Source: Patescibacteria group bacterium | GTDB lineage: Bacteria; Patescibacteriota; Patescibacteriia; Patescibacteriales; UBA12465 | Direction of reading: 5' to 3' | NCBI GenBank assembly: GCA_049318005.1 | Contig: JBMOHE010000001.1 | Location: forward strand, 117,995-181,994 | DNA: 64,000 nucleotides | Part shown: positions 20,146-39,051 of the stretch, piece after piece | How the letters are laid out: each line of letters starts with the position of its first letter | How positions within the stretch are numbered: position 1 is the first letter of the stretch | Program-made: the position numbers and the translations under genes | The notes under the pieces: model-generated | Database searches by the model: none | Told to the model about the DNA's origin: nothing | What the model saw: the letters and a program-made list of their open reading frames with translations, nothing else

Positions 20146-20160
20146 ATTTTTCTTAAATAA

Positions 20161-20203: not shown

Positions 20204-20215
20204 TATAAACAAAAA

Positions 20216-21178: not shown

Positions 21179-21180
21179 AC

Positions 21181-21702
21181 TTAGTAACGATGACTAACGC
21201 TCATGTTAAAATTTTTAGTATATGAATATTCTGAACGCCCAAAAGAATCCACTGCACTTAAAGTAAAACGACAATTAATACTATCAGGGGCTCCGGTTTT
21301 CCCATAATTAGCACAAAGAAAATTTGTAACTGTTACTTTAGAATTTGTTAAAGCTATGTCTGAGCCGCCTGCTAAATTTATCATTAAACCACTACCGACA
21401 AGTTTAAAAACGGTTGGATTACGACTAGCGTCAGAGAAACTTAGAGTTAAACTTGAACCACTCACTCCCGGTAAGGGCGCAGTAATATTCGCAGCCGCTT
21501 TGATATTTTGATTAAGTAATTGAGTTATATTTATCCCCTGTTGTTCTATTTCAGAAATTATTTGATTTTTCTCTTTGGCCTGAGAAACGGCATTCATAAA
21601 AGATGAAATCGTTAAAACTAATGTTCCCATAATCGAAACATATAAAAGCAGCTCTACTAAAGTAAATCCCTGTTTATTTTTTTGTTTTTTCAAAATTATC
21701 AT
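21181..21702 (-). CDS. Minor pilin / pseudopilin (prepilin-type N-terminus).
   Basis: NKQGFTLVELLLYVSIMGTLVLTI carries the G^FTLVE motif. Confidence 0.75.
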   Translation of the reverse strand: MIILKKQKNKQGFTLVELLLYVSIMGTLVLTISSFMNAVSQAKEKNQIISEIEQQGINITQLLNQNIKAAANITAPLPGVSGSSLTLSFSDASRNPTVFKLVGSGLMINLAGGSDIALTNSKVTVTNFLCANYGKTGAPDSINCRFTLSAVDSFGRSEYSYTKNFNMSVSHRY

Positions 21703-21704
21703 TA

Positions 21705-23183: not shown

Positions 23184-23577
23184 TATTAATTGAATTTAAA
23201 ATAATTGTACCGTTTGTAATTGGCGTCCCCGTAGCTTTATAAAAAACTACTTCCGTTAAACCACTAACAGAGCCTAAACTATTTAAATTTTCGCTTTCAT
23301 CATAAGCGCTATCGCGAGAGATATATGAAGATCCTTTAAACGTTACTGAGCTCGTGCTTGTTATATAAACTCCCCAATTAGAATCAGCTTCTGCTCCGCG
23401 CGCCAAGCTTTGAGCTCGACGCCAATCAGAAACTACTTGCTTAACAGCTAAATCAAGGTTATTGCGATTATAAAAAAAACCGGAGACCGGAATAATAATT
23501 GCCGCTAGGACTCCAATCGTAGTAAGCACTAAAAGTATTTCAATTAAAGTAAAGCCCGAAGACTTTTTTTTGAGCAT
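23134..23577 (-). CDS. Minor pilin / pseudopilin.
   Basis: MLKKKSSGFTLIEILLVLTTIGVLAAIIIP (G^FTLIE). Confidence 0.75.
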   Translation of the reverse strand: MLKKKSSGFTLIEILLVLTTIGVLAAIIIPVSGFFYNRNNLDLAVKQVVSDWRRAQSLARGAEADSNWGVYITSTSSVTFKGSSYISRDSAYDESENLNSLGSVSGLTEVVFYKATGTPITNGTIILNSINNESKNVSINSQGTISY

Positions 23578-23591
23578 ACGTTAAATGAACC

Positions 23592-24674
23592 TTAATTAAG
23601 AGAATTATAGCCGCCAATCAAACTATAAATAGGTAAAATAATAGATAAGGCAACGCCGACAACGCCCAACCAAACAACAATTAGTAAAATCGGCTCTAGA
23701 ATAACTACTAGATTCTTAGTCGTCATTTCAGTTTTATCATTATAGCTTTCGCCAATTTTGACAAGAATATCAGCTAAATTACCCGACTGTTCCCCGGCAA
23801 TAATCATTTGCTGAATTGAGTATGGCATTATTTTGTTTACCTTTTTATAAGAAGCAAAACTTTTTTGAAAAGAATTCCCTTCTTCAACATAATCTTTTAA
23901 AAAAGTATAAAATTTTTGATAGCGAAAAAATGTACTTGAACTTTTTATTGACTCTAGCGCCTGCTCGACTGGCAAACCAGCTCCAAGCAAAGTTCCTAGT
24001 AAGTAACCAAAGCGCGCTAATTCAACTTCTTGAACTAATTTACTTATTCCCGGAGTTGCTAAAACGATAGACTGACCAATAAATTTTGTTTTCGAGAAAA
24101 TAAAAATAAAATAAATTAAAGCCGAGAGAAATAATAAGAAAGATGGAACTACTATATATCCATAGGCCCCTAAAAATTTTCCAAAATCAATCATTAATCT
24201 TGTAATAAGTGGCAACTTTACATTCATTTGCGAAAAAACAGTCGCTAAATTAGGCAAGATAAACCAAGAAATACCAATTGAGATTACGAGAGCTAAAAAA
24301 ATAACAAAAACCGGATACATCATGGCCGACTTAAGTTTAGATTTAAACTCTTTATTTTTTTCAGTTTGACTGGCAACAATTTTTAAATTTTCTGATAATC
24401 GTCCTGTTTCTTCTCCAATTTTAATTAAAGAAATTGTTGATTCCGGGAAAAGATTAGAGGAGGCGGCGGCCCGCCAAAAAGAAGAACCATTTTCTACCTC
24501 TTGGCTCATGTGGTTTAATATCTCACTCAAATACTTTGATTTGATCTCTTTTTGAACAGCCAAAAGAGCCATAGAAACATTTAAACCAGAGGATAATAAA
24601 AGGGTTAAATTTTCAATTAAAATTCCCCTTTCAGCACCCGTCCCCAAAGATGAAAAAAAATTATTTTTTTGCAT
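23592..24674 (-). CDS. pilC: Type IV pilus / T2SS inner-membrane platform protein PilC/GspF.
   Basis: Duplicated GspF domains; IKIGEETGRLSENL and a second IAGEQSGNLADIL motif; three TM helices. Confidence 0.85.
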   Translation of the reverse strand: MQKNNFFSSLGTGAERGILIENLTLLLSSGLNVSMALLAVQKEIKSKYLSEILNHMSQEVENGSSFWRAAASSNLFPESTISLIKIGEETGRLSENLKIVASQTEKNKEFKSKLKSAMMYPVFVIFLALVISIGISWFILPNLATVFSQMNVKLPLITRLMIDFGKFLGAYGYIVVPSFLLFLSALIYFIFIFSKTKFIGQSIVLATPGISKLVQEVELARFGYLLGTLLGAGLPVEQALESIKSSSTFFRYQKFYTFLKDYVEEGNSFQKSFASYKKVNKIMPYSIQQMIIAGEQSGNLADILVKIGESYNDKTEMTTKNLVVILEPILLIVVWLGVVGVALSIILPIYSLIGGYNSLN

Positions 24675-26316
24675 ACGGCGGGTTGGCTACGCGAAGTAAT
24701 TCGTCTAAAGTTGTTAAGCCATTCTTTACTTTCTCAAGCCCATCTTCAAATAAAGATATGGCTCCATTTCTTTTAGCGACTTCCCAAATTTGCTGACTAG
24801 AAGGATTTTTTAAAATTAATTCTTGCAGTTCGGGGTTTATACTTATGAATTCAAAAATTCCAATTCTTCCCTTATACCCAGTTCCAGAACAATTGGGACA
24901 ACCCTTACCTTTGTACAAAGTAACATTCTCTTTGCCAAAATATTTTTTTGCTTGCGGCAATGTTTTTTCTAAACTTGATGTTTTAACATTAATAGAATAG
25001 CGGCAAGACTCGCAAATACGACGCGCTAAACGCTGGGCAACAATTAATTCAAGCGTTGAGGATAAAAGAAAAGGCTCTATGCCCATATCTATTAAACGCG
25101 GAATAGAGGTTGAAGCGTCGTTAGCATGAAAAGTTGAAAGCAAAAGATGGCCAGTCAAAGCAGCGTTAACAGCAATTTCCGCCGTTTCCTGATCGCGAAT
25201 TTCGCCAACTAAAATAATATCCGGATCCTGCCTAACAATAGAACGCAATCCCTTAGCAAAAGTTAAATTAGTTTGTTGATTAACTTGAATCTGATTAATG
25301 CCGGAAATTTTAAACTCAACTGGATCTTCGATAGTTGTAATATTTACTTCGGGATCATTAAGTGTTCTAAGGACAGCATATAAAGTCGTCGTTTTTCCGC
25401 TACCAGTTGGGCCGGTAACTAAAATCATGCCAAAAGGTTTTTTTGCCGATATTTCTAATAATTTCTGACTATCACCAAGCAAGCCCAAGTCACTCAAAGC
25501 AAAGCTACGCATATAATCAGCGAGCAGACGAAGAACAATTTTCTCACCATCTAAAGTCGGGATTAAAGAAAAACGAGCATCAATTAAACGACCGTCACGA
25601 ACAAAGCGAATCGCACCGTCCTGAGCGGCATAATGTTCATCGATTCTTAAACGAGCTTGAACCTTCAAGCGGTTAACAATATTCTCATAATATTCTTTAG
25701 GAATTCTTCCAGCCTCATGCAAAACGCCATCAACACGAAATCTAACAACCACTTCTTTTTCTTGAGGCTCAAAATGGATATCAGAAGTTCTAAAACTAAC
25801 CGCATCAGTTAAAATTTCTTCGATGATTTCCGGGGCGACGCTTTTCTGGTCTTTAATAATCTGACTAAATCTAGTTGCTAAGGTTTTTCTATATTTACCC
25901 AGAGCGGCTTCAATATCTTCTTCAAGCGAGTAAGCTAAAGAAACCTTTTTCTTAGGAAATAAAATTTTTATCTTATCAATTAAATGAATATTATCCGGAG
26001 TATCGGTCGCAATCACTACTTCTTTAGCCCCTTCTTCAAATAATATCAAACGAAATTTTTGAGCTATTTCTTCAGGTATTTTAGCAATTTGCTCCTTACT
26101 CGGCTGATTTGAATTTAAATCTGCATAAGCTAATTTATAAAATTCAGCAATCGCCTGCCCTAATAAATCAGAGGTTAATATTTCTTCGGCAATTAAATAA
26201 TCAGCTAAACTTGTATGTCTAGCTTCACTATTCTTTAATGCTAAGACTAAATCTTTTTCTTCAACATAATTACCGCTAAGTAAAACTTGCTGTAATTGCT
26301 TGTCTGATAATTTTAT
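24661..26316 (-). CDS. pilB: PilB/GspE-family pilus assembly ATPase, second copy. There is no canonical start codon: the GspE N-domain coding sequence begins immediately after the stop of the upstream response regulator gene.
   Basis: GPTGSGKTTTLY (Walker A), DPDIILVGEIRD, LTGHLLLSTFHAND (His box) and a tetracysteine motif C..C...C..C. My translation upstream of the ORF-track TTG start continues without a stop as FPIKLSDKQLQQVLLSGNYVEEKDL...LGQAIAEFYKLAYADLNS...IPEEIAQKFRLILFEE (GspE_N domain). The codon aligned with Met1 of the first pilB is ATA. Confidence 0.8.
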   Translation of the reverse strand: MKLSDKQLQQVLLSGNYVEEKDLVLALKNSEARHTSLADYLIAEEILTSDLLGQAIAEFYKLAYADLNSNQPSKEQIAKIPEEIAQKFRLILFEEGAKEVVIATDTPDNIHLIDKIKILFPKKKVSLAYSLEEDIEAALGKYRKTLATRFSQIIKDQKSVAPEIIEEILTDAVSFRTSDIHFEPQEKEVVVRFRVDGVLHEAGRIPKEYYENIVNRLKVQARLRIDEHYAAQDGAIRFVRDGRLIDARFSLIPTLDGEKIVLRLLADYMRSFALSDLGLLGDSQKLLEISAKKPFGMILVTGPTGSGKTTTLYAVLRTLNDPEVNITTIEDPVEFKISGINQIQVNQQTNLTFAKGLRSIVRQDPDIILVGEIRDQETAEIAVNAALTGHLLLSTFHANDASTSIPRLIDMGIEPFLLSSTLELIVAQRLARRICESCRYSINVKTSSLEKTLPQAKKYFGKENVTLYKGKGCPNCSGTGYKGRIGIFEFISINPELQELILKNPSSQQIWEVAKRNGAISLFEDGLEKVKNGLTTLDELLRVANPPYAKK

Positions 26317-26322
26317 GGGAAA

Positions 26323-26703
26323 TTATTTAACTTTTAGAATTTTTTTGATGTTTTCGATAATATCGAGAAGCGGAGTATTTGATTTAATAAAAAAAGCCAC
26401 GGCGCCAAGGTCCTTAGCTTTTTTAGCGTCATCTTCCTGGCTCAAATTAGACAAAACGACAATCGGCGTTTTAATTTTTTTAGCATTCATTTCTATCATA
26501 ATACTAAAACCATCTCGTTTTGGCATCATTATATCAAGGAGAATAATATCAAATTTCTCTTTAAGAATAAGGTCCATTGCCTCTTCGCCGTTACTCGCTA
26601 TGGTCGGCAAAAAACCTGAATGACTCAGTTTTAGTTGAAGCGCATTGGCCATTAGTCTTTCATCCTCGGCTATCAACACTTTTTTCAATTTAATTTCAGG
26701 CAT
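26323..26703 (-). CDS. Single-domain response regulator (REC only), in the same reading frame as the downstream pilB.
   Basis: KVLIAEDERL...DIILLDIMMPKRDGF...LSNLSQEDDAKKAKDLGAVAFFIKS; paralog of 2898..3263. Its stop TAA (26323-26325) is followed in-frame by the GspE_N coding sequence. Confidence 0.85.
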   Translation of the reverse strand: MPEIKLKKVLIAEDERLMANALQLKLSHSGFLPTIASNGEEAMDLILKEKFDIILLDIMMPKRDGFSIMIEMNAKKIKTPIVVLSNLSQEDDAKKAKDLGAVAFFIKSNTPLLDIIENIKKILKVK

Positions 26704-26777
26704 AAATTACAAAAAGACAATATTTATCGATATTTAAATAATATCATAATTAGACTAATTCGACAATATTTTAAATA

Positions 26778-26806
26778 AAAAGCTATCTCGAGAGATAGCT
26801 TTGGGA
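26778..26806 (-). terminator. Palindromic hairpin / terminator candidate.
   Basis: AGCTATCTC-ga-GAGATAGCT palindrome flanked by A/T runs, downstream of 26836..27204. Confidence 0.45.
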
Positions 26807-26835
26807 AGGGCTTAATTTTTAAATTTGATGATTTT

Positions 26836-27204
26836 TTAAGTTGGAATAACCACTGGGGAATGTCCAAATAATTCTTTGTCTAAAACTGGTAAGGCAAGTT
26901 TACCGGGAACCTCGCCATCGTTAACTAAAACAAGAAGATAGATTATCATTTCTTTGGCGGCATAGGTTGGGCGGCCACCGGCTTTTTTGTATTCCTCGTT
27001 ATCGAGAAAAACTGACTCTTCTTCGAAAGACAAAATAAAATTGATTTCCTTGACGCCCGATATGCCGAGCTCAATTTGATCATCTTTATAGTAAAACTTG
27101 GTTAATGAAAAATCTAAATCATCTTTCTTTAATTGACAAATTTTCTCACTAACCGCAATGAAAAAATTACTTTTAATCATTTTTTTTGCTTCTCCGGTTT
27201 CCAT
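26836..27204 (-). CDS. Hypothetical protein (122 aa).
   Basis: Clean ORF; no motif recognised. Confidence 0.45.
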   Translation of the reverse strand: METGEAKKMIKSNFFIAVSEKICQLKKDDLDFSLTKFYYKDDQIELGISGVKEINFILSFEEESVFLDNEEYKKAGGRPTYAAKEMIIYLLVLVNDGEVPGKLALPVLDKELFGHSPVVIPT

Positions 27205-27289
27205 CCTTTTTGGTTTTTAAAATGTACGTAATTCAAAATTTAACACTATATAAACATATATCTTCTGATACTATATTTTCAAAAAAAAC

Positions 27290-27892
27290 CTATCTTCCCG
27301 AACTAAAGTCATCTGTTTTCAAATCTAATTTTCTTAGGAAACCATTCGCTGCTGCGATATCCCCATCAGACGCGGCTGTATAGGCATTAACATAGTCCGC
27401 AAAATTCTCAGCATTAACCGAAGCCATTGTGCTTGCTCCAACAAGACTCCTCCATGCCTTATAGTCGTTAGACTGTATAGCATTTTTTATTGTTTGGCTT
27501 TTAGAAGATGATTGAAAAAAACTTTTCTTTAGACCTAAAGATATTTTTATTGGATTTGCATCTTCAACATTACCCTGCTTAAGAAGCCTATAGGCGTTAG
27601 TAAAACTCGAAAAATTTTGTTCCGTCACCTTACTTTTTATATTTTCATCACTCACTAAGACACTCCAGGTTTCATAATCATTGTTCATGATAGCCGAATC
27701 TATTTGCGCATTTTTAGCTTGAGTAAGAGCGATGCTAATTCTTACTCCGGCAAAAGCGGCTACTGGAAGCAAAAAAACCGCTAACAAAAATATTCCAACT
27801 ACCAAAGACTTCTTGTATTTTTTTGTAAAGTTTTTAACATTAGCAAAAAAATCATTTTTTACATTTTTTTGATCCTTAATTTCATTCTTCAT
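27290..27892 (-). CDS. Membrane-anchored protein with two tandem ~45-aa repeats.
   Basis: N-terminal TM (LVVGIFLLAVFLLPVAAFA); internal repeat NDYETWSVLVSDEN...FSSFTNAYRLL versus NDYKAWRSLVGAST...FADYVNAYTAA. Confidence 0.55.
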   Translation of the reverse strand: MKNEIKDQKNVKNDFFANVKNFTKKYKKSLVVGIFLLAVFLLPVAAFAGVRISIALTQAKNAQIDSAIMNNDYETWSVLVSDENIKSKVTEQNFSSFTNAYRLLKQGNVEDANPIKISLGLKKSFFQSSSKSQTIKNAIQSNDYKAWRSLVGASTMASVNAENFADYVNAYTAASDGDIAAANGFLRKLDLKTDDFSSGR

Positions 27893-27959
27893 ATTTTTTA
27901 AAATATACTTATAAATATATACTTACATTTATTATATCATTAATCTAAATAATATTCAA

Positions 27960-29195
27960 TTATACGCCCTGATTAAAGACCAGAGTGCTATTTTTATAGT
28001 TATAATCAAAAGCTGATTTAAATTTCTCTATTATCATGACATCATCAGTTAAAATAGCTGATTCATCATTGTAATAAGAGCCCGCCTTACTCCAGTTATT
28101 CGTTCCAAACAATATTTTACTATCGTCAACCATTAACATGTGGTAATGAAGAAATGGGTCAACTACGTTAATTATGTTGTTCGGCTGATTATTATTTATG
28201 CTGAGTGGGGTGCTAGAAGCATCCATTAAAATTTCTAGATTATCTAATTTTAATCTCTTCTTTTCATCGTTTAAATAAGAAAAAGCTGAACTTTTATTTA
28301 TAATATTAAATGAATCGCCAATAACAATGACTCTAACGCCAGCACTAGCTCGATTTATCAATTCAGCTGCTAAATTTCTATCTGTTAAGTCCCAAATCAT
28401 AATTTTTATGCTGTTTTTAGCCTCCTTAATCAACTTATAAAGACTATCGTTTATTCCCTCGTTATGACGGCCTGGACCAAATAAAACTGTATATTTAAAT
28501 TTTCCAGCTATAAGCTCTAGGTCCTTGGGATTATATGATTTATTATCCAGCTTCTTTATACCTGATTCTCCAAAGCTTAATCGATCAAATTCATGGCCAA
28601 AACTATTAACTAGCCAATGACTACCAGTTAAAAAAAGAAAACTCTGATCATACTCGTCCTGAATTTCGGTCCAATTATTAGAACCAAATATTAAGCGTTC
28701 ATTATTTTCTCCTCTATCTATCAGGGCAAATTTATGATGCATTAAAACAGAATAAGTAGTACTGGAGCTTCCCAGATCTAAGCGTTTTATGGCTAGAGGT
28801 AAATCAAGCCACAGAACATCATTGATCTCTTTTTTATGTAAATCGAAAATTAAAGTTACCTTTACTCCACGATCTACCGCCCTATACACAGCCTCTTTTA
28901 TGCTTTGCGATTTAAAAGAATAAACAGCGATTTCTAAACTCTTACTAGCCTTATCAATTTCCTTAATTATTAAAGGCGAGAATGAATTAGTGCTGGAGGC
29001 GTAATTAAAATATATGTTGCTTTCTACTGGCTCACTAGTTTTTACAATTTCCCCTAAATCATGACTCATAAATATACTACCCAATAGGTTATATGACTCC
29101 TTGGCCAGCCAAGCTAATAACAAGATACTAAAAACGATTACTATTAATATAATAGCTTTATTATGAACTATTTTTTTTAATTTTCTAAATTTCAT
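27960..29195 (-). CDS. PLD-superfamily protein (two HKD-type motifs, the second degenerate) with an N-terminal signal-anchor.
   Basis: Motif 1 HHKFALID...GSNNWT (HxKxxxxD...GSxN); motif 2 HYHMLMVDD...GTNNWS (K replaced by H); N-terminal TM IILIVIVFSILLLAWLA. Overlaps the upstream gene by 11 nt. Confidence 0.75.
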   Translation of the reverse strand: MKFRKLKKIVHNKAIILIVIVFSILLLAWLAKESYNLLGSIFMSHDLGEIVKTSEPVESNIYFNYASSTNSFSPLIIKEIDKASKSLEIAVYSFKSQSIKEAVYRAVDRGVKVTLIFDLHKKEINDVLWLDLPLAIKRLDLGSSSTTYSVLMHHKFALIDRGENNERLIFGSNNWTEIQDEYDQSFLFLTGSHWLVNSFGHEFDRLSFGESGIKKLDNKSYNPKDLELIAGKFKYTVLFGPGRHNEGINDSLYKLIKEAKNSIKIMIWDLTDRNLAAELINRASAGVRVIVIGDSFNIINKSSAFSYLNDEKKRLKLDNLEILMDASSTPLSINNNQPNNIINVVDPFLHYHMLMVDDSKILFGTNNWSKAGSYYNDESAILTDDVMIIEKFKSAFDYNYKNSTLVFNQGV

Positions 29196-30894
29196 AATAA
29201 TTATTATAATTTAGCAGATCGCGGCGCCCCTTAGAAAAAAAAACGAGTGAACTATCTTTGAGCTCCTTCTCCAAAAGAAGAAGCAAGGCGTCGATTGCGG
29301 GATCATTTAAATCGAGCCAATAATTATCAATAGTTATAAACTTCGGTTTTGTCTGAAGACAATGAGCAACTTGTAATAGTAAGCAACTTTTTGAATTAGT
29401 AATAAACTTATCAGCCCTTAAGCGCCAATCAGCTCTTTCAAAAAATATATCTTTCAATTCTTTATGGCTGTTAACTAAGTTTGAAATGCTTAGCAAGTCA
29501 TCGGTCTTAACTCTATCCTTTTCTTTCCCGGCCACTATTTCCAAAATACTGCGTCCACTTTTAAAGGCCGGGTCTATATAATATGAACCAGAATACGCTC
29601 TAAAAAAATCATTATAGTAAAAACGTTGCTTATCCGCTTTAATTATCCAAGCATGACGATTAAAATCACTTCGCCCGGCAAATAATTTTGCCAGTTTCGT
29701 CTTTCCGCTTAATCTATCGCCACTTATTAAATATCGAAATCCAACAATAAACTCAAATGATAAATTCTTATAATATTTAGACTTTTTATAAAGTTTTGTT
29801 TTTGAGCTTTGAAAAATTAAACTTTTAAACTTATGTTTTATTAACTTATTAAGGGGCCGTATGCCTTTAGGCGGTATGGACAAAATTAATCCGAATAGCA
29901 GCGGGACCGAATAGAGTCCAACTCGTAAACTTTCAAACAGTAAACGTGAGCAATAGATTATTAAAATTATCAATAAAAAGTTATTATCGGGACTAACGGA
30001 AAGAATTGCGCTTATCTCCTGTCTATAATAACTAATTAGCCAGCTAAAGAAAATAAATATAATAAACAAGATGCTTGATCCAAACTTCAACCATAGGTCA
30101 CGGCGAACTCTAAAATAAGAATCCAATTTTACCAAATTATTAAAATCGGACAGAGCCTGATTCTCTCGACGAAAAAATTTTGTAAACTGCCAATCTGATA
30201 ATGAAAAATCTACTAATTTAATAACTTGGGAATAAAAAGTAGTTTCTTTAATAACATATTTTTTTGCAATAAAAAAAGCGCTAATCATTACTAGAGCGCT
30301 CAATATTAAAGATAATATTAACCACCAAAGAAGCTTCGGTCCAAAAATAAAACACAGAATAATAAATATAAAAACTAGAAGAAGCCAACGGACGGAGCCG
30401 AGCAGGCAGTTTGTTAAGCCAGAAGAAAGCATCGGCAAATGGTATGATATTTTAGCAAGCAGTCTCCCCTTTTTTTCTAAATTATATTCGTCATTGGTTT
30501 GAGATAATAATGATTTAAACCAATTTTCGCGTAAATTATTAATTAAGCGAATAACGGCCGTTTTTTCTAACTTAATTGCCAGATAAGACACAACTAAATA
30601 TAAACTTGCCGCCCCTGCAATAACCAACAAGGTTACAATCAGACTTACTTTAGTAGTCGATATTGCTCCTGATTTAATATACTGATGGCTGATCAATATT
30701 AAAATTATTTCTAAAATTCCCTGCCCAAAAATAAGAGCTAAAGTAAAAAGAATTATTTTTTTTTCTTTTTTAAAAAATTTCAAAAGATAATTAATATGCT
30801 CCCGTAAAGGACGCAGGGATTGACGACTCCAGCGCTCGTCTCTCAATTCACGTAAAAATTTAATTTGTTCATCGGCCATATCCATAAATAACAT
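29185..30894 (-). CDS. ABC exporter-like fused TMD-NBD protein with a degenerate nucleotide-binding domain.
   Basis: Six TM helices with long cytoplasmic loops (type I exporter fold); Walker A ISGDRLSGKTKL is present, but the ABC signature is replaced by ITNSKSCLL and Walker B by FITIDNYW (no catalytic Glu). Overlaps the RT gene by 26 nt. Confidence 0.7.
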   Translation of the reverse strand: MLFMDMADEQIKFLRELRDERWSRQSLRPLREHINYLLKFFKKEKKIILFTLALIFGQGILEIILILISHQYIKSGAISTTKVSLIVTLLVIAGAASLYLVVSYLAIKLEKTAVIRLINNLRENWFKSLLSQTNDEYNLEKKGRLLAKISYHLPMLSSGLTNCLLGSVRWLLLVFIFIILCFIFGPKLLWWLILSLILSALVMISAFFIAKKYVIKETTFYSQVIKLVDFSLSDWQFTKFFRRENQALSDFNNLVKLDSYFRVRRDLWLKFGSSILFIIFIFFSWLISYYRQEISAILSVSPDNNFLLIILIIYCSRLLFESLRVGLYSVPLLFGLILSIPPKGIRPLNKLIKHKFKSLIFQSSKTKLYKKSKYYKNLSFEFIVGFRYLISGDRLSGKTKLAKLFAGRSDFNRHAWIIKADKQRFYYNDFFRAYSGSYYIDPAFKSGRSILEIVAGKEKDRVKTDDLLSISNLVNSHKELKDIFFERADWRLRADKFITNSKSCLLLQVAHCLQTKPKFITIDNYWLDLNDPAIDALLLLLEKELKDSSLVFFSKGRRDLLNYNNYYEI

Positions 30895-32080
30895 TTAAAA
30901 AATATTTATAAACTGAAGAGAGATGCATGTTTTTAAGCTCTGTTTCTAAAAGTCTTCTATTTTTAGGCGTATAGGTTTTAAAAAAATATCGTGTTAATAT
31001 ATGAAAAAAATTTTCCGACAAAGCTCTTATTTGCTCCCCGTCATTTACTAATTTTTTTTGTTTAGCTATTTCACGAAAATCGACTAATAGATTATTATTA
31101 CTTTGAGATAATACTGACCGCAAATAGTTCTTTTTTCTCGCTAAACTTTTAAAATTATAATAATTAAACTGAGAACTCCAACGAAGTAAAGTGTGTTTTA
31201 AAAATCCCTTGTTTAAACTTACTAGCCCCGAGTCGAAACTATAACCGAGGTAATCAAATTTTTCTGCAGCGGTAATGTATTTCGTTTTACTAGAACTAAC
31301 CATGAGCCCTAATTTTTTTGTTTCAGAAATCAAGTAGTCATAAAGAATTTTTAAACGATCCTTATTCTTATCCATAATAATTAAATCATCACCAACGCGA
31401 CGATAAAAATCAGAATTTTTTCCACAATATTTATCAAATTCGTCTAAATAAAGATTGTTAAATAAGCCGATTAGGGGGGTGCCAGTAATTAGACCAAACT
31501 TCGGATTAATAATTTCTCCATCGCGAATAGCCTTTGGAGAAACGAATAATGACAAAAGCTTTACCATGGGCTCGCTAAAACCCATGTTTTTAATTTTATT
31601 TATTAATATATCAAACTGAATATAGGAGCTATAGTCGGCCATGTCAGAGACAATTAAAGAATCTCTTTTATAATATCTTTGATAATGGCGAACCGTACTT
31701 CGACCGGCAAAATAGCTCGGGTGAGATTTTCTATAAGAAAAAAGCCAAGGCGAAAAATAATTATCAAAATATGGTTCAACTATTTGATAAACTGCTTGCG
31801 CCTTGACTCTGTCTTTAAGATTATAAATATAAATTTCCCGCATCTTCCCGGGCTTATTCTTTTTGGGAATTCTAACTAAAATAGCCGGAGAAAGCGAAGT
31901 AAAATTTATAATTTCGCTCTGAACTTCTTTTATTAATTTAGCTGAACTGATCTCTAAATCACTAAATTTTAAATTATCCCAACCAGCATATCTTCCCAGG
32001 CGATTATCGCTTTCCATCTGCTCAATCAGATTTAAATAAGCTTTCTCTATATTTTTTTTATCAATTATTTCATTAAACAT
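30869..32080 (-). CDS. Reverse transcriptase (prokaryotic retron / group-II-like / unknown-group clade), 403 aa with all seven RT motifs and a thumb-like C-terminus.
   Basis: Motif 1 ILVRIPKKNKPGKMREI; motif 2 LKDRVKAQAVYQI; A LIVSDMADYSSYIQFD; B GLITGTPLIGLFNNLYL; C YRRVGDDLIIM (YxDD-type GDD); D LKILYDYLISETKKLGL; E FDYLGYSF. Confidence 0.85.
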   Translation of the reverse strand: MFNEIIDKKNIEKAYLNLIEQMESDNRLGRYAGWDNLKFSDLEISSAKLIKEVQSEIINFTSLSPAILVRIPKKNKPGKMREIYIYNLKDRVKAQAVYQIVEPYFDNYFSPWLFSYRKSHPSYFAGRSTVRHYQRYYKRDSLIVSDMADYSSYIQFDILINKIKNMGFSEPMVKLLSLFVSPKAIRDGEIINPKFGLITGTPLIGLFNNLYLDEFDKYCGKNSDFYRRVGDDLIIMDKNKDRLKILYDYLISETKKLGLMVSSSKTKYITAAEKFDYLGYSFDSGLVSLNKGFLKHTLLRWSSQFNYYNFKSLARKKNYLRSVLSQSNNNLLVDFREIAKQKKLVNDGEQIRALSENFFHILTRYFFKTYTPKNRRLLETELKNMHLSSVYKYFLNVIYGYGR

Positions 32081-32091
32081 AAATCGAGTTC

Positions 32092-32352
32092 CCTAGCTGC
32101 TACTTCTAGTCTGGCCGGACCTTAGCGGACGACCATTATTTATACAAAGAGTACGATTTAATCGCATGGCTCCGTAGAAATACGGAGCTGTGCAGCGCAT
32201 GGCTCTGTAGAAATACGGAGCTGTGCAGTAGAATTGTACATAATCAACCCATCAATTACTACCGACATTAGCGGCTTTTTTAGTAACAACCAATTGATTT
32301 TTAATGTCTCAAGGAGAATTAACTCTTTTGATTTTTAGAAGTAGCAACTAGG
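32092..32352 (-). ncRNA. Candidate structured non-coding RNA associated with the RT (retron msr/msd-like). A domain of about 225 nt is closed by 18-nt inverted repeats, and the proximal repeat ends 12 nt upstream of the RT start codon.
   Basis: Inverted repeats CCTAGCTGCTACTTCTAG (32092-32109) and rc of TTAGAAGTAGCAACTAGG (32335-32352) match 16 of 18 positions, with tandem palindromic 33-nt units inside. The strand is uncertain: a G•U wobble in one hairpin favours the plus strand, but the repeat's position next to the RT start favours the minus strand. Confidence 0.35.
32163..32228. repeat. Tandem direct repeat, 2 × 33 nt, each unit an imperfect palindrome (hairpin).
   Basis: CGCATGGCTCCGTAGAAATACGGAGCTGTGCAG (32163-32195) and CGCATGGCTCTGTAGAAATACGGAGCTGTGCAG (32196-32228) differ at one position. 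Each folds as GCa..GCTCCGTA-gaaa-TACGGAGC..TGC. Confidence 0.85.
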
Positions 32353-32560
32353 AAATTAGAAGTCTTACTTAACAAAATTACCCCATAAATACATTATATA
32401 TGTTTATTAGTAATTAGTAAACCAAGCTATTTCGTCAAGAAAGAAGTGAAAAATTAAGAATATAATAATTAGACGACAAAGGCAAAGTGTGCTGGAATAA
32501 AAAAAGTATACTGAAATAAATAATGCCACAGTCCGCCGGCGATGAGACTACTGCGAGACG

Positions 32561-32596
32561 AAAAAAAATCTTACTTTTTAGTAAGATTATAAATTA
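32561..32596 (-). terminator. Rho-independent terminator of the NUDIX / tRNA-Ser transcription unit.
   Basis: AATCTTAC-ttttta-GTAAGATT is a perfect 8-bp stem; read on the minus strand it is followed by U8. Confidence 0.75.
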
Positions 32597-32598
32597 AA

Positions 32599-33057
32599 TT
32601 ATAGCGGTTTATAATTAAACTCTTTGACAGTCAAACCATCGGCGCTAAGTTTAATTTCAGCTTCAATTTTTTCTCCTGCGAGTATAAGCGGCATCCACAT
32701 AGCATCATCTATCCACATTTCGTCAAATGGAAGATTGGCTATGGAGCGCCATTGAGGGCTCATCTCTTCGGTTTCAATAGGGTTCCCCTTCCAAACATAA
32801 AGTAAAAACACATAACAATCAAAAACATGATTTTCATCAAAGTAAAAATGAATTAAAGCAACTTGTTTAAGATTGTCTTCGCTAGTAATAAGGCCGGACT
32901 CCTCTTTAAGTTCACGGATAGTAGCCATCAAAGGGCTTTCATTCTCTTCGATTTTTCCCCCGTAACCATTTAATTTATCACAGCCGAAGCCACGCTTCTT
33001 TAATCCTAAAAGAATTTGTTCCTCGTTAATACAATAACAAAGAGTTGATTTTTCCAT
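32599..33057 (-). CDS. NUDIX hydrolase.
   Basis: Nudix box [24 protein letters not shown] (GX5EX7REUXEEXGU). I place the start at MEKS (33057), because the ORF-track extension to 33135 would overlap the tRNA. Confidence 0.8.
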
Positions 33058-33089
33058 ACTATTGCCTTTTATAATGTACAAAACAAGTG

Positions 33090-33174
33090 CGGAGAGACAG
33101 GGATTCGAACCCTGGGTACCTTTCGGTACACACACTTTCCAGGCGTGCGCACTAGACCGCTATGCGACCTCTCC
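33090..33174 (-). tRNA. tRNA-Ser (anticodon GGA), class II with a long variable arm; CCA not encoded.
   Basis: The reverse complement is GGAGAGG-TC-GCA-TAGCGGTCTAG-TGC-G-CACGC-CU[GGA]AA-GUGUG-UGUACCGAAAGGUACC-CAGGG-UUCGAAU-CCCUG-UCUCUCC-G. It has a 7-bp acceptor stem, U33, A37, a 16-nt variable arm, a T-loop TTCGAAT and discriminator G. Confidence 0.85.
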
Positions 33175-33200
33175 AAAAGCGATTTATGGTCGCTTTGTTT

Positions 33201-33932
33201 TTATTTTTTTAATAACTCGGTAACAATAGTTTTCAAGCCCAAAATTTTGTCACCATTTGAATCTGTATAATCCTCATATGGACGAGCGCCCAAAATCATT
33301 TCTTTACCAATAAATATAGTTGGCGCACCAAGCACGCTATAAGTTTCTGCTTCAGAACTGAGCCCCTCTATTTTTGCGGATTTTTCATTATTAGTCAAGC
33401 AAGCATTAAGACTACTTTGGTCTAAATTAATCTGAGAAGCATATGAATTTAACTCCTCCAAATTTAAACCTTCATTCTTTGTTTTAGCAAGTAACAGTGC
33501 ACGCATTTCAATCCATTTGTTTTGATCACCGGCACATTCGATTGCTAAAGCAGCTTCTCTGCTAGCCGTTTCGTTTTTAGAAATATAGGGCCTGATAATA
33601 ACCGAAACGTCATTTTTATTTTCTGAATATATCCTATCTATGGTTTCGGCTAATTCGGCGCTATATAAGTTAGCGGCGTCTTCGTAAACAAATATTTTTA
33701 GTTTTGCATCTTTATCGCCAAATATTTTATCCCCCTCTTTAAAACTTGGGTATTTAACCGATGAATAAACCTGCGCCATCGCGCTTCCAATAGTAATTTT
33801 TTGAAACTTATTATTTTCTTCAATGTCAGAATTATTACTTCTGACTTTAAAAATAACCAATGCCAAAAATATCATCGATAGGACAAATACGATGATAATT
33901 AGAATGCTTTTTAAATTTTTAATGCTTTTCAT
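33201..33932 (-). CDS. Membrane-anchored DsbA-like thioredoxin-fold protein lacking the CxxC active site.
   Basis: N-terminal TM; the fold resembles BdbD/DsbA (cis-Pro loop region GAPTIFIG), but the position of the CxxC reads EDAANLYS. Confidence 0.45.
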
Positions 33933-33961
33933 AATCTTTTGATTATTTTATAAATAATTTA

Positions 33962-35425
33962 TTATTTCTCTAAAACCCCGGCGACTTTAAATATTGTTCC
34001 CTCTTCTAAGCGCGGGGCTATTAACTGTGCGCCAACTGGCATATCATTTCCTTCTCTTGTTTTAACTAGACCAATGGGAACAGACAGCGCCGGTAAACCA
34101 GCTAAAGATGCACCAGTCACGAAAATATCCTCCATGTACATAGCTAGCGGATCATTAATCTGCTCACCTATTTTAAAAGCTGAGTGAGGCGAGGTAGGAG
34201 TTAGTAATATATCAACTTTCTCAAATACTTTATTAAAATCATTAACAATTAAAGTTCTAACTGATTGAGCCTTTTTATAATAGGCGTCATAATAACCAGC
34301 ACTAAGAGCATAAGTTCCTAACATTATACGGCGCTTAACTTCTTGACCAAAACCAAGTCCACGATTTGTTTTATAAAAATCCTGAAGATCCTTCGCTTCA
34401 TTTTTTGCTAAGCCCCAACCTATACCATCAAAACGCGCTAAGTTAGAACTAATTTCAGAGGGCGTAATTATATAATAAACCGGTACTCCGTATTCAGTAT
34501 TAGGCAAAGATACTTTAACCATTTCGGCACCAAAATATTCTAATTTTTTAATAGTTTCTTCTAGGCGTAAGGATATTTCTTTATTCATTTCTTTCAAGAA
34601 ATATTCTTTTGGCAAGCCAACTTTAATCCCTTTTAAAGGATGCGGTCCGGCTACTTTTAGATTAACTGAGTTAATCTTTTCTTCATAAACTTCAACCGCT
34701 TCCGGCGAACTAGTCGCATCTAAATCATCACGACCAGCGATTACTTTTAAAACTAGGGCCGAATCATAAGCGTTTTTAGTTAAAGAGCCGATTACGTCGG
34801 TTGAGGAGGTCATAGAAAGTAAACCGAAACGCGACACGCGTCCATAGCCTGGTTTGAGGCCATAGATACCACAGAAGCTAGCTGGTTGGCGAATTGAACC
34901 ACCCGTATCAGAACCAATCGCAAAAATACACATATTAGAAACTAGCGCCGCGGCTGAACCGCCCGAAGACCCACCAGGAACTCGAGTTAAATCAAGCGGA
35001 TTCTTAGTCGCGCCATAGGCAGAATTTTCAGTTGAAGCACCATGGGCGAATTCATCCATATTAGTCTTGCCTAGTAATACTGCTCCCGCTTCTTTTAATT
35101 TTTTTATAATAGTCGCGTCATATGGTGCAATATAGTTTTCTAAAATTTTTGAAGCGGCCGTTGTTTTTATTCCTTTCGTCATTATATTGTCTTTGCAAAG
35201 ATAAGGAATACCAAGCAGGTCGCCGGTCTCTCCTGACTTGATTCTTTTATCCGCCTCTTTAGCATCAGAAACGGCCGAATCTTCACAAGCAGTTAGCACG
35301 GCGTTAATTTCTGGATTTAATTTTTTTATTTGCAAAAGACAGGCCTTAGCCAATTCTAAAGATGAGATTTCACCACTATCTAATTTTATACGCGCTTCTT
35401 TAATTGTAAGTTCATTTAAATTCAT
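33962..35425 (-). CDS. gatA: Glutamyl/aspartyl-tRNA amidotransferase subunit A.
   Basis: Amidase signature GGSSGGSAAALV and the catalytic Ser-cisSer-Lys context (KDNIMTKGIKTTAAS). Confidence 0.9.
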   Translation of the reverse strand: MNLNELTIKEARIKLDSGEISSLELAKACLLQIKKLNPEINAVLTACEDSAVSDAKEADKRIKSGETGDLLGIPYLCKDNIMTKGIKTTAASKILENYIAPYDATIIKKLKEAGAVLLGKTNMDEFAHGASTENSAYGATKNPLDLTRVPGGSSGGSAAALVSNMCIFAIGSDTGGSIRQPASFCGIYGLKPGYGRVSRFGLLSMTSSTDVIGSLTKNAYDSALVLKVIAGRDDLDATSSPEAVEVYEEKINSVNLKVAGPHPLKGIKVGLPKEYFLKEMNKEISLRLEETIKKLEYFGAEMVKVSLPNTEYGVPVYYIITPSEISSNLARFDGIGWGLAKNEAKDLQDFYKTNRGLGFGQEVKRRIMLGTYALSAGYYDAYYKKAQSVRTLIVNDFNKVFEKVDILLTPTSPHSAFKIGEQINDPLAMYMEDIFVTGASLAGLPALSVPIGLVKTREGNDMPVGAQLIAPRLEEGTIFKVAGVLEK

Positions 35426-35510
35426 ATTCTATGGTCCCCTAATTTCATTAAATATTTATTTTTTATTTAAATTATTTTTATTGCTCTTAAGTTATAATAT
35501 TTTTTGCGTG

Positions 35511-35578
35511 GGCCCAGGAGCGGTCTCCAGACCAAAATTAGCACTTGGTTCCCGGGGTTCAACTCCCCGTGGGTCCAC
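35511..35578 (+). ncRNA. tRNA-like structured RNA element E1: a miniature cloverleaf with a tRNA-Ala-type acceptor (G3•U70, A73) and a canonical T-arm.
   Basis: GGGCCCA pairs with TGGGTCC (7 bp, with G•U at pair 3-70), followed by discriminator A; T-arm CGGGG-UUCAACU-CCCCG; mini D-like hairpin GGAG-CGGU-CUCC; central hairpin CCAA-AAUUAGCAC-UUGG. It lies in the gatC-gatA spacer on the strand opposite those genes. Confidence 0.4.
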
Positions 35579-35695
35579 TAGCTTTTAAATCTTGACGATA
35601 AAAAAATATTTGTTATAATTAATGTACAAGTGCTAATTTTGGATCAGAGCCGTAACGGAACCAGAAGAATCTCCCTAATGGGGAGATTTTTTGTT

Positions 35696-35980
35696 TTACA
35701 AAACTCGCTTAACTTTTATCTGACCATTTTCAATGTCACTCTGACCTAAGGCCGCTTCAATTTCTTCTCTATTCCAATTAATAACTTCATCACTTCTTAG
35801 AACATCCGATAGCCCGCTAACTGAAGCTGTGATTTCAATATTCTTAGTATTAACTTCTTTGAGTTTTTCTACATAAGCTAAAATAGACCCAAGCTGATCG
35901 CCGAATTTTACTTCTTCTTGGGAACTTAAATCTAAACGGGCTAGTTCAGCAATATGTTTTATATCTTCTTGGCTTATCAT
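35696..35980 (-). CDS. gatC: Glutamyl/aspartyl-tRNA amidotransferase subunit C.
   Basis: 94 aa; MISQEDIKHIAELARLDLSSQEEVKFGDQLGSILAYVEKL is typical of GatC. Confidence 0.85.
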   Translation of the reverse strand: MISQEDIKHIAELARLDLSSQEEVKFGDQLGSILAYVEKLKEVNTKNIEITASVSGLSDVLRSDEVINWNREEIEAALGQSDIENGQIKVKRVL

Positions 35981-36058
35981 ACTTTTCTAATATTTATGCG
36001 GGGTTTATTTTTTATTTAAATTTTCTTTATTAGCGACCTGTTATAATAACTTTACTGT

Positions 36059-36146
36059 GGGCCCGGCTAGGTAGCGGAATCGGACTTAACAATCGATTCT
36101 CCGGAGTTCAACTCCCTGCCTGCCGGCAGGCAGGTCCGCGGGTCCA
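36059..36146 (+). ncRNA. tRNA-like structured RNA element E2, a paralog of E1 with an extra GC-rich hairpin.
   Basis: GGGCCCG pairs with CGGGTCC (G•U at pair 3-70; the A-U to G-C change at pair 7-66 is a compensatory change relative to E1), discriminator A; GGAG-UUCAACU-CUCC T-arm-like hairpin; central hairpin GAATCG-(11 nt)-CGATTC; inserted palindrome CTGCCTGCCGGCAGGCAG. Confidence 0.35.
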
Positions 36147-36257
36147 CAGGGGCTAGTTTATAATTAATATATGCTTCAATTGACTCAGGGAAAATATTTT
36201 GCTATAATTATTTTATTGTTAAGTTCGATCTCAACGCTGTCTGGTGTAGAAAATAAA

Positions 36258-36290
36258 TTCCTCCGCAAAAACGGGGGTTTTTATTTTACT
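36258..36290. terminator. Bidirectional rho-independent terminator downstream of ligA.
   Basis: CCTCCG-caaaaa-CGGGGG hairpin followed by TTTTTATTTT, with an AAAATAAATT run on the other side. Confidence 0.55.
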
Positions 36291-38433: not shown

Positions 38434-38493
38434 AAGCATATTATAACACAAAAGCCCTGCTTTTGGCAGGGCTTTTTACGTATTTTTTAAATT

Positions 38494-38730
38494 TTATTGA
38501 GCAGGAGTGGCCTCAGCGCCATTAGTAGCACCAGTTTTATTAGCACCAGTAGCCTGGTTTATAAAAGCGACAATTTCGTTAACTGCTTTTGTGTTTTGAG
38601 CAGTTGCCTGTTGAAGTTGAACTAAGGCGGCGCTAGCGTTATTTAAACGTGCGCTAAACTGCCAAAAAATCATTATTAAAACGCCAGCAACAATACCAGC
38701 AATTAAAGGAAGCATTATTTCTCTTTTCAT
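38494..38730 (-). CDS. Small single-TM protein (about 78 aa).
   Basis: MKREIMLPLIAGIVAGVLIMIFW...LVQLQQATAQNTKAVNEIVAFINQATGAN; paralog of the next gene. Confidence 0.5.
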   Translation of the reverse strand: MKREIMLPLIAGIVAGVLIMIFWQFSARLNNASAALVQLQQATAQNTKAVNEIVAFINQATGANKTGATNGAEATPAQ

Positions 38731-38755
38731 AGATTTTTGATTATTTATTATTTTA

Positions 38756-38956
38756 TTATTTAGTCTGGGCATTTGAGGCGGAATTAATGAAATTAACGAT
38801 TGAGCTAATTTTAGCTGCGTCATCAACAGTTGTTTGTTGAACGGCAATTATTCCTTTATCCATACGGTTTAAAGAAATAAAAACATAAACGAACATAGCC
38901 GCTACTAGAAGAACAGCGATGCCGCCGATGATTGGACCGACAAGTGATTTTTTCAT
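38756..38956 (-). CDS. Small single-TM protein (about 66 aa), tandem paralog.
   Basis: MKKSLVGPIIGGIAVLLVAAMFVYVF...IAVQQTTVDDAAKISSIVNFINSASNAQ. Confidence 0.5.
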   Translation of the reverse strand: MKKSLVGPIIGGIAVLLVAAMFVYVFISLNRMDKGIIAVQQTTVDDAAKISSIVNFINSASNAQTK

Positions 38957-39051
38957 AATAGATATGGTTATTTTATTAATTAATTTTATTATAGCAATTT
39001 TAAAAAAGAGGGTCAAATTTGAGATATTTAAACCGCTCTTCTTCAATTTTA

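Follow-up and report, generated by a model that had tools for sequence, protein, structure and literature searches.

The closest described systems join a reverse transcriptase (RT) to a dedicated RNA, to an effector, or to both. In DRT10 a structured non-coding RNA (ncRNA) with a central stem-loop and four small stem-loops lies beside the genes for an RT of the UG17 group (formerly G2L3) and for a tightly co-evolving SLATT membrane protein, and its authors propose that complementary DNA (cDNA) controls the membrane protein (PMC12632851). SLATT is thus the partner of UG17, as a Vsr-like endonuclease is that of UG26 (PMC9226505). In retrons the ncRNA stands immediately upstream of the RT gene, is closed by long inverted repeats (a1/a2), contains a variable hairpin region (msd) and is co-inherited with effector genes, some of which encode membrane proteins. 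Among the group-II-intron-like (G2L) RTs, G2L4, whose active site is YIDD, is reported to act by itself in the repair of double-strand breaks, and the gene association given for G2L enzymes in a review is with queuosine-pathway genes only (PMC8632793). Here we describe a locus that shares features with each of these systems. It lies in a 64,000-nt stretch (hereafter the window) of contig JBMOHE010000001.1 from a Patescibacteria group bacterium and consists of a structured RNA, a G2L-type RT, a protein resembling an ATP-binding cassette (ABC) exporter and a membrane-anchored protein of the phospholipase D (PLD) superfamily. Its layout is nearest to that of DRT10 and the retrons, but its RT clade, its partner proteins and the fold of its RNA place it in neither. 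We propose, with a probability of about 0.42, that these components form a conserved four-part retro-system, found almost only in Patescibacteria, that acts in conflict or defence by way of a pair of effectors across the membrane, the ABC-like protein and an outward-facing PLD protein.

The open reading frames (ORFs) of the window place three overlapping genes on the minus strand, those of the RT, the ABC-like protein and the PLD protein, with overlaps of 26 nt between the first two and 11 nt between the last two; an earlier note on this DNA had given the same coordinates and the same overlaps. A genome scan with a single RT protein as query returned no match; a query built from the family alignment found the loci, and 164 related loci were collected, their gene content being determined by scoring all ORFs with hidden Markov models (HMMs). 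All three genes are present in 132 of the 133 loci that have room for them on the contig. The order RT, ABC-like, PLD is colinear in 122 loci; the arrangement is convergent in 3 and divergent in 7, the contig is too short to tell in 31, and in a single locus, L082, there is room on the contig and no PLD gene was detected. That locus (5941..9297) is the most divergent relative, with 28% RT identity, 60% GC and the label Peribacteria; its RT gene and a weak ABC-like gene are followed by a DUF2975 membrane protein in the place of the PLD protein. The ABC-like and PLD genes always form one unit, in that order, to which the RT gene is always adjacent. Gene overlaps are kept in relatives (L001 and L005, for example), and the content of the module is stable from 80% down to 28% RT identity. 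The flanks vary and include ribosomal proteins, ribonucleotide reductase, RuvB, queuosine genes and Fic. Since the trio survives rearrangement, with the RT gene on the opposite strand in some cases, the linkage of its members appears to be functional rather than transcriptional. Clustering of the RTs at 85% identity gives 105 clusters, and trio and RNA recur together in about 100 of them: the RNA, the RT, the ABC-like protein and the PLD protein are co-inherited. Of this architecture, and of the functional linkage within it, we are close to certain. The earlier note had read the trio as a conserved module and would have given it up had the adjacency been confined to one genome; the neighbourhood search that it proposed, run with the three proteins together, instead returned the near-complete co-occurrence reported above. 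No description of the module was found in Rfam, in PADLOC or in the open-access and bioRxiv literature.

The distribution of the module is narrow and patchy. At 90% identity the RT family comprises about 105 clusters, and every source name given is that of a Patescibacteria lineage. Only 78 loci were found among 185,579 species-representative genomes, and several genomes hold two or three copies whose RTs are 39-64% identical. Many taxon labels of metagenome-assembled genomes are unreliable, and many contigs labelled 'uncultured Gammaproteobacteria' look like Patescibacteria by gene content and by being nearly identical to contigs that carry such a name. A few loci sit on GC-rich contigs labelled as non-Patescibacteria. 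One locus, L060 (CBDFMQ010000002.1, a 2.96-Mb contig of 61% GC labelled 'Longimicrobiales'), has a complete module with a 27-bp closing stem, and reflects either horizontal transfer out of Patescibacteria or a problem of labelling or assembly. The restriction to Patescibacteria is strong, not absolute. The sole 'viral' contig with the module, L165 (IMGVR_UViG_3300001866_000229, 41..5719), carries two large ORFs that match tail-fibre PHROGs; large secreted proteins of a similar kind are also neighbours of chromosomal copies, and the contig has therefore probably been misclassified as viral. A phage-borne element was rejected on this ground, L165 being the one match in the viral collection and its ORFs resembling the surface proteins found beside chromosomal copies.

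To which lineage does the RT belong? The protein matches Pfam RVT_1 with 58.5 bits. In an alignment of 34 family members D146, D231, D232 and K265 are invariant, motif C is RRVGDD, and an N-terminal RT0-like extension and the thumb are conserved; motif B, read by eye, is GTPL, in contrast to the SQ-containing motif of DGRs (diversity-generating retroelements). The active site is predicted to be intact. When the family profile was scored against PDB sequences of reference RTs, a ranking of scores with no phylogeny behind the placement, group II intron RTs stood at the top (GsI-IIC, 134 bits; 7uim, 127 bits; 5hhl, 124 bits), followed by Cas6-RT-Cas1 (113 bits), LtrA (90 bits), DRT2 (55 bits), G2L4 (51 bits) and retron Ec86 (30 bits; Ec86 and Ec78 range from 24 to 30 bits). 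The alignments to the best matches, the RT of the class C intron GsI-IIC and the RT domain of RT-Cas1, cover the fingers, the palm and the start of the thumb. Against the PADLOC models, which have no curated cut-offs, the RT scored 114 bits with the generic RT model, 95 bits with UG26 (a partial match, profile positions 43-286 of 398) and 67 bits with UG17. The weak UG17 match is a point in common with DRT10, but both UG scores lie below those against group II intron RTs, and UG26 and UG17 differ further in their partners, which here are an ABC-like and a PLD protein. Because the group II intron RTs rank highest and no intron RNA accompanies the gene, we file the enzyme as G2L-type in the broad sense: by its profile scores it is probably a free-standing, domesticated RT in a host operon, as other G2L RTs are, outside G2L4, the retrons and the named UG groups. 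From G2L4 it departs by its VGDD site and its obligate partners, neither a dedicated ncRNA nor membrane partners being reported for G2L4.

The other RT-based elements fit less well. The NCBIfam retron model St85 (NF038233) gave 23.6 bits against a cut-off of 235, the RT sequence contains neither an NAxxH nor a VTG motif, and the RT0-type extension and the length of the protein are further departures from retron RTs. A DGR was rejected because its paired template and variable repeats were not found: no such pair with A-specific differences occurs in 20000..42000, a result obtained with no DGR-specific RT profile scored, and a general Pfam scan of the neighbouring ORFs, which included no Avd model, gave no accessory-type domain match. 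A mobile group II intron was likewise set aside. An Rfam scan (E <= 5, 26000..34500) gave no match to Intron_gpII or group-II-D1D4, the next gene overlaps the RT stop by 26 nt, and the group II RT/maturase family TIGR04416 scored 107.4 bits, below its cut-off of 300. Motif C is RRVGDD rather than YADD, and the locus has neither Cas1 nor a CRISPR array. A likeness of the cassette hairpin of the leader (AGCUCCGUA...UACGGAGC) to the lower stem of domain V was dismissed as chance, as the cassette is hypervariable between loci. All three exclusions, of DGR, retron and mobile intron, had been made in the earlier note and are supported. Its view of the module as unclassified survives in part: no catalogued family fits, and in the HMM classification that it had called for the retron profile stayed below its cut-off and the UG profiles scored lower than group II intron RTs, but the RT does have a lineage, being closest to the group II intron RTs.

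That closeness raises the question of a selfish retroelement, whether a degenerate group II intron or a new retrotransposon with cargo genes. Such an element would also suit a module that starts directly behind a terminator-like hairpin, the kind of site into which class C introns prefer to insert, and a genomic location that varies between genomes. We nevertheless hold it to be very improbable. Beyond the missing intron RNA domains in Rfam, near-identical copies do not occur within a genome, where paralogues are 39-64% identical; repeat searches of the window revealed no terminal repeats or target duplications; gene content stays constant between 80% and 28% RT identity; and the one 'viral' contig is chromosomal in look.

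The second conserved element is the RNA. Upstream of the RT gene lies a leader of 518 nt (32081..32598) with no ORF of at least 60 aa. It contains two copies of a 33-nt tandem hairpin repeat (32163..32228) and a long-range inverted repeat of 20-25 bp, and it folds with -105 kcal/mol (z = -5.9 against shuffled sequence). The earlier note had described a structured leader of 500 nt; the inverted and tandem repeats and the structure are there, but the putative functional RNA occupies only about 267 nt of it (Table 1). Its architecture, read from folds and from an alignment of 25 sequences (A3), comprises a long closing stem (P1) and five further helices including a pseudoknot, in the order P1, P2, the pseudoknot (from the 3' side of P2 to the loop of P4/P5), the variable cassette, a conserved unpaired stretch and P6. 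In A3, 96.8% of cells are paired, vs 30-46% with slid partners, and 31 of 39 pairs have changed on both sides, with 0 of 500 shuffles at the observed score. For P1, all 11 modelled pairs show changes on both sides in relatives. The sequences of its arms are completely different between lineages, and at most loci a region of 165-320 nt is enclosed by a perfect stem of 11-31 bp, with 1-30 nt left between the end of the stem and the RT start codon. As P1 was found by a stem search and is a selected feature, a covariance model (R1) was built without the pseudoknot to remove this bias. Over about 1.65 Mb, both strands searched, R1 gave 56 + 47 = 103 matches, each of them located upstream of an RT gene and on the same strand as that gene; in the window it has a single match, at 32098..32346 (106 bits, E = 7e-22). 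In an alignment made by the model from the first 56 of these matches (A4), the pseudoknot that R1 lacks has 99.3% of its cells paired, and 6 of its 6 pairs show compensatory changes; the structure as a whole is 95.3% paired, vs 36-46% for slid controls. R1 covers the better-populated subfamilies and matched about 60% of the loci searched; divergent subfamilies outside it have a long closing stem too, together with two complementary 7-mers set the same distance apart. The Rfam scan described above found no family like the leader RNA. From its covariation-supported fold, its pseudoknot and its swappable cassette, we regard it as a putative new RNA family. The position immediately upstream of the RT, the closing by long inverted repeats and the variable hairpin region recall the a1/a2 repeats and the msd of retrons, but here the conserved bases after the P1 5' arm are AAAAC, and the alignment of relatives has no conserved G at that point that could correspond to a priming G. 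The fold of the DRT10 RNA is different again, the long closing stem, the pseudoknot and the cassette being features of the RNA described here.

An RNA that abuts a start codon invites a simpler explanation, in which it is a cis-acting autoregulatory 5' untranslated region descended from the RT-binding site in domain IVa of group II introns and masks the ribosome-binding site of the RT. The substrate of the RT would then lie elsewhere, for instance in DNA repair, where G2L4 acts, and co-transcription would be all that joins the membrane pair to the RT. Group II intron RTs do bind a stem-loop at their own start codon, and the 3' arm of P1 is purine-rich, with a Shine-Dalgarno-like motif inside it in 48 of 88 relatives; G2L4 is reported to be a domesticated G2L RT that works without an RNA template of its own. 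Masking of the ribosome-binding site by the 3' arm is on this sequence evidence plausible but not general, the motif being missing from the arm in 40 of the 88. An RNA of 170-320 nt with six helices, a pseudoknot and a hypervariable cassette also goes far beyond a translational operator, some loci have duplicate RNAs in tandem that differ in their cassettes, two loci keep the RNA about 2 kb from the RT, and the trio persists through rearrangements that include an RT on the opposite strand. We consider purely cis-acting regulation improbable.

The cassette is the most unusual part of the RNA. It can be as short as about 10-15 nt or as long as about 140 nt, and stable hairpins are usual. Five distinct loci carry two complete RNA copies in tandem upstream of one RT (Table 1), two of the five being duplicated in the metagenome set. 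In four of them the scaffolds of the two copies are about 95-100% identical and the central 60-140 nt are unrelated; in L046 the copies are more diverged overall. Uniform drift is disfavoured because this contrast between scaffold and cassette is too sharp, and the pattern indicates replacement, targeted diversification or a gene conversion confined to the scaffold. A role of the cassette as a spacer or antisense guide was rejected: cassettes have no match elsewhere in the window, nor in 1.6 Mb of related loci outside the RNA copies, and one exact 23-mer from one cassette had no match in IMG/VR, a weak test with a single cassette and an exact match needed. At two loci, L042 and L130, other genes intervene and the RNA is found about 2 kb away from the RT, which suggests that the leader RNA can act as a separate RNA. 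In L130 the RNA is at 158..371 and the RT at 2174, and the two genes between them are on the opposite strand. One of these, an ORF at 436..1842 (minus strand), encodes, by reading of the sequence, a secreted protein whose C-terminus resembles a Fibrobacter-type (C-lectin-like) paralogous domain; the C-lectin-like fold is a frequent DGR target.

Table 1. Coordinates of the module and of associated features. Positions are those of the window, except for the last five rows, which give positions in the loci named.
Feature	Position	Strand	Description
RT gene	30869..32080	-	403 aa; group-II-intron-like (G2L-type), motif C RRVGDD
ABC-like protein gene	29185..30894	-	569 aa; type I exporter-like half-transporter, nucleotide-binding domain predicted hydrolysis-dead
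PLD protein gene	27960..29195	-	411 aa; N-terminal transmembrane anchor, PLD-superfamily hydrolase fold
Fourth linked gene	27290..27892	-	200-aa protein with transmembrane anchor, no known domain
Structured ncRNA (putative)	32089..32355	-	about 267 nt, bounded by the outer ends of P1; stops 8 nt before the RT start codon
P1 5' arm (TTTCCTAGTTGCTACTTCTA)	32336..32355	-	20 bp with 32089..32108
P1 3' arm (TAGAAGTAGCAGCTAGGGAA)	32089..32108	-	purine-rich; may include the RT ribosome-binding site
P2 hairpin	32309..32331	-	paired in 94-97% of cells at a conserved position
Pseudoknot 5' strand GACAUUA	32302..32308	-	partner 32264..32270
P4/P5 long hairpin	32242..32299	-	apical loop UAAUGUC (32264..32270) is the pseudoknot 3' strand
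Hypervariable cassette	32163..32228	-	two tandem 33-nt hairpins, one base different
P6 3' hairpin	32112..32135	-	CCG...GG-type loop; immediately before the P1 3' arm; 7/7 pairs changed on both sides
AT-rich hairpin and eight U	32561..32588	-	3' of the NUDIX stop codon; read directly from the sequence
Promoter-like site	32393..32421	-	TTTACT, 17 nt, TATAAT; about 35-40 nt upstream of the P1 5' arm
Tandem RNA copies, L017	932..1502
Tandem RNA copies, L043	5527..5992
Tandem RNA copies, L046	5628..5991
Tandem RNA copies, L073	5401..5977
Tandem RNA copies, L003	6149..6938

What do the two membrane proteins contribute? The ABC-like protein matches Pfam ABC_membrane with 55 bits and has no ABC_tran match in Pfam, and its AlphaFold model (pLDDT 77) gives full-length Foldseek matches of about 570 columns, at probability 1.0, to MsbA, TmrAB, PglK, HlyB and TAP, so that it has the fold of a type I exporter, a domain of six transmembrane segments joined to a nucleotide-binding domain. 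In 115 homologues G-x4-GKT persists as the Walker A consensus, Walker B is I-x-I-D-N, with Asn in place of the catalytic Glu, and neither the LSGGQ signature nor the H-loop His is present. In ABC enzymology such a motif state predicts nucleotide binding without turnover, and the protein is probably able to bind ATP and unable to hydrolyse it; the degenerate ATPase seen by the earlier note in one sequence is a property of the whole family. The family is self-contained, its members scoring at least 235 bits and the next match, an ordinary ABC transporter, 40 bits.

The PLD protein, likewise a self-contained family, has two PLDc_2 halves in Pfam. Site 1 is canonical (HxKxxxxD...GSxN, with H153, K155, D160 and N174 invariant), and site 2 is family-wide HxH(x)4D...GTNNWS, with H350 and D357 invariant and H352 in at least 90%. 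A hydrophobic anchor stands at the N-terminus of each of the 109 homologues; 5.4 K/R precede it and 2.0 follow, and by the positive-inside rule applied to these residues the PLD domain is predicted to face outward. A signal-anchored protein with two HKD motifs, as the earlier note had it, is thus right as to the anchor and the first site, but the second site is HxH rather than HxK. The best sequence profiles are those of the nucleases NucT, Nuc and Zucchini and of the defence PLDs DrmC and MkoC; the cardiolipin synthase profile reaches 19 bits. The model (pLDDT 89.9) is a compact two-lobed PLD fold that matches PLD3 and PLD4 (TM-score about 0.67), phospholipase D 7e0m, Streptomyces PLD and PssA. 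PLD3 and PLD4 are type II membrane exonucleases of single-stranded DNA (ssDNA), and they share with the PLD protein the N-terminal membrane anchor and a non-cytosolic, two-lobed PLD domain. Identity to PLD3/PLD4 and NucT/Nuc is 12-14%, the second motif here is HxH, and lipid PLDs match the fold about equally well; on the evidence of the model, the fold by itself would not separate a nuclease from a lipid enzyme.

The same fold matches could place the module in host interaction or lipid scavenging, the outward PLD protein being a phospholipase or transphosphatidylase on host or own lipids, the MsbA-like ABC protein handling lipid, and the RT and RNA only regulating expression. Patescibacteria have no lipid synthesis. 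Phospholipase D 7e0m, Streptomyces PLD and PssA are strong fold matches, the best fold matches of the ABC-like protein are the lipid flippases MsbA and PglK, and the neighbours are rich in surface proteins (pilins, large tail-fibre-like proteins and transmembrane proteins). But the sequence profiles favour Nuc-type nucleases over cardiolipin synthase, an ATPase dead for hydrolysis could not drive flipping, a patchy multi-copy distribution is odd for core nutrition, and the strict co-inheritance of an active RT and an elaborate RNA is left unexplained. A lipid function therefore seems to us a poor prospect.

The genes around the module point in another direction. We clustered 331 neighbour proteins drawn from the 105 RT clusters at 85% identity. 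Type IV pilins are the largest neighbour family (20 members), followed by homologues of the 200-aa protein encoded in the window (19), large secreted tail-fibre-like proteins (12), generic ABC ATPases (10), cupredoxin-like transmembrane proteins (8), ECF sigma factors (7), PilB (4) and transmembrane-anchored proteins of the metallo-beta-lactamase (MBL) fold (4). A pilin gene stands immediately upstream in 11 of 91 loci, whereas the three remaining positions have one in 9 of 240 cases (odds ratio 3.5, p = 0.008), a comparison of positions around the module that has no genome-wide background of pilin density behind it; in Pfam terms, no family is commoner among 150 immediate neighbours than N_methyl, with 13 cases. 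The window itself has PilB, PilC and three pilin-like genes a short way downstream of the module (about 20200..26050, minus strand). PilB and PilC also stand beside the module in L008 (11189..15136); in L042 (1660..5992) two pilin genes lie between the RNA and the RT and two more just upstream; and directly downstream in L003 (12167..14655) are ComM (Mg_chelatase family), DprA, Y1 transposases and a NERD/UPF0102 gene.

On this basis the module could be an accessory of the type IV pilus, of competence-type DNA uptake or of nucleotide salvage, a reading that is the main rival to ours, though we regard it as unlikely. The outward PLD protein would be a NucT-like or PLD3/4-like nuclease on extracellular or incoming DNA, anchored or gated by the ABC-like protein. 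The substrate of the RT and RNA would be single-stranded nucleic acid entering the cell (in priming or complementary-strand synthesis, for example), or else these two would regulate the process. Patescibacteria do not synthesize nucleotides and rely on scavenging, pilins are the top neighbour family with their excess immediately upstream, PilB/PilC adjoin the module here and in L008, pilins separate RNA and RT in L042, DprA and ComM follow the module in L003, and both the profiles and the fold and topology of the PLD protein suit a nuclease of this kind. Weighed against this, a pilus gene is near the module in only about 20% of related loci and the comparison has no genome-wide background rate; these genomes have many pilin genes, often in variable regions; pili and competence genes are near-universal in the group, unlike the rare and patchy module; and divergent multi-copy paralogues suit conflict systems better. 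We know of no uptake pathway with an RT or an ncRNA.

Two further neighbours deserve mention. The 200-aa protein, which has two internal repeats of about 60 aa and no match in Pfam, PADLOC or PHROG, has homologues in 27 loci of the subfamily to which the window belongs, mostly directly after the PLD gene and, in L001, L024, L095 and L137, directly before the RNA. It is a fourth, subfamily-specific component; the trio of the earlier note holds, and in this subfamily its downstream limit was drawn one gene short. At four loci (for example L059, 4870..5736) the gene immediately upstream encodes the transmembrane-anchored MBL-fold protein, which matches the PADLOC models 'RT-associated MBL' (DRT), LmuA and Avs1a MBL with E from 1e-21 to 1e-27.

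The upstream boundary of the module in the window is formed by a NUDIX gene and tRNA-Ser(GGA) (33089..33174), the NUDIX gene lying between the tRNA gene and the leader. The mechanical call of the NUDIX ORF (32599..33135, minus strand, GTG start, 178 aa) extends into the tRNA gene; its true start is probably an ATG near 33055 (MEKSTL...), which gives about 152 aa. The hairpin that follows its stop codon is likely a terminator that isolates the module from upstream transcription, as the earlier note had supposed: hairpin and eight U are plain to see, but the terminator scan did not call them, the hairpin being below its GC threshold. The promoter-like site downstream of it agrees with the consensus at 10 of 12 positions and is weak evidence, and in promoter and terminator scans of the window the site counts were not above chance expectation. 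Insertion of the module as an island at the tRNA gene, which the same note had suggested, was rejected: the 3' end of the tRNA gene has no direct repeat in the window, flanks vary, relatives lack a conserved tRNA adjacency and NUDIX genes account for 3 of 150 immediate neighbours. Farther away, a motif of about 40 nt (...GGATTAGTCGTYCCAATKCCGAC...) occurs four to five times in 39381..41598 at spacings of 246-1467 nt, and probably marks internal repeats of a large coding gene.

How might the four parts work together? In the model that we favour, the RT would bind the RNA scaffold encoded just upstream of its own gene and copy part of that RNA, most likely the region of the cassette hairpin, into a small cDNA or an RNA-DNA product. 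The ribonucleoprotein or the cDNA would act on the cytoplasmic nucleotide-binding domains of the ABC-like dimer. Instead of pumping, this dimer would serve as a switch or conduit across the membrane, controlling or feeding the PLD hydrolase on the outer face. As to its role, we favour conflict or defence, abortive-infection-like or entry-blocking, at odds somewhat below even (0.4-0.45), because the well-studied bacterial triads of RT, ncRNA and effector (retrons, DRT2, DRT9 and DRT10) are all defence systems and because the module is rare, patchy and present as divergent paralogues. An effector role of the PLD protein is also favoured by its matches to the DrmC and MkoC profiles and by the four MBL neighbours that match the RT-associated MBL model. 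The effector differs from that of DRT10, the SLATT protein being replaced by an ABC-like and an outward PLD protein and the host range being Patescibacteria. To our knowledge, no retron type in the Mestre 2020 retron typing has ABC-like or PLD effectors.

Several points weigh against the defence model. That the RNA serves as a template is purely inferred, and a cassette that can shrink to about 10-15 nt could be a plain expansion segment. The classification of the RT rests on profile scores rather than on phylogeny. An outward-facing hydrolase is unusual for a defence effector, and the pilin excess, the PilB/PilC genes and the DprA/ComM pair of L003 are suggestive, though only that, of DNA uptake or the cell surface. 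In PADLOC and Pfam scans the 150 immediate neighbours showed no enrichment of restriction-modification, toxin-antitoxin or Cas genes; a defence-island context was accordingly discarded, since the PADLOC matches were to generic helicase, ABC and MBL domains. A bolder arrangement is also conceivable, with a low probability: the RT would copy the cassette to ssDNA, the ABC-like dimer would be a nucleotide-gated conduit, and the PLD protein, as a PLD3/4-like exonuclease, would trim or present the product outside the cell, in concert with type IV pili.

What are the implications of such a module? It adds a new lineage to the few domesticated prokaryotic RTs, one that appears to derive from group II introns and not from retron or UG/Abi stock, and within the open-access and bioRxiv literature it is the first RT system found whose obligate partners span the membrane, with a hydrolase predicted outside. 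Genome-writing tools have profited from parts of this kind, here a compact RT of 400 aa that comes with its own RNA scaffold and an exchangeable cassette. Were the export of ssDNA to be true, the module would be a programmable DNA-trafficking or surface-signalling machine of episymbiotic ultra-small bacteria, used for example in interaction with hosts, kin or incoming DNA, and would represent a new use of reverse transcription apart from mobility, diversification, spacer capture, repair and intracellular immunity. Should the module be tied to pili or DNA uptake, reverse transcription would gain a connection with the trafficking of nucleic acids. In the tiny genomes of Patescibacteria each retained module of 4.5 kb needs explaining, yet some keep two or three divergent copies; if the module is a defence system, it would widen the immune repertoire of a huge uncultured radiation.

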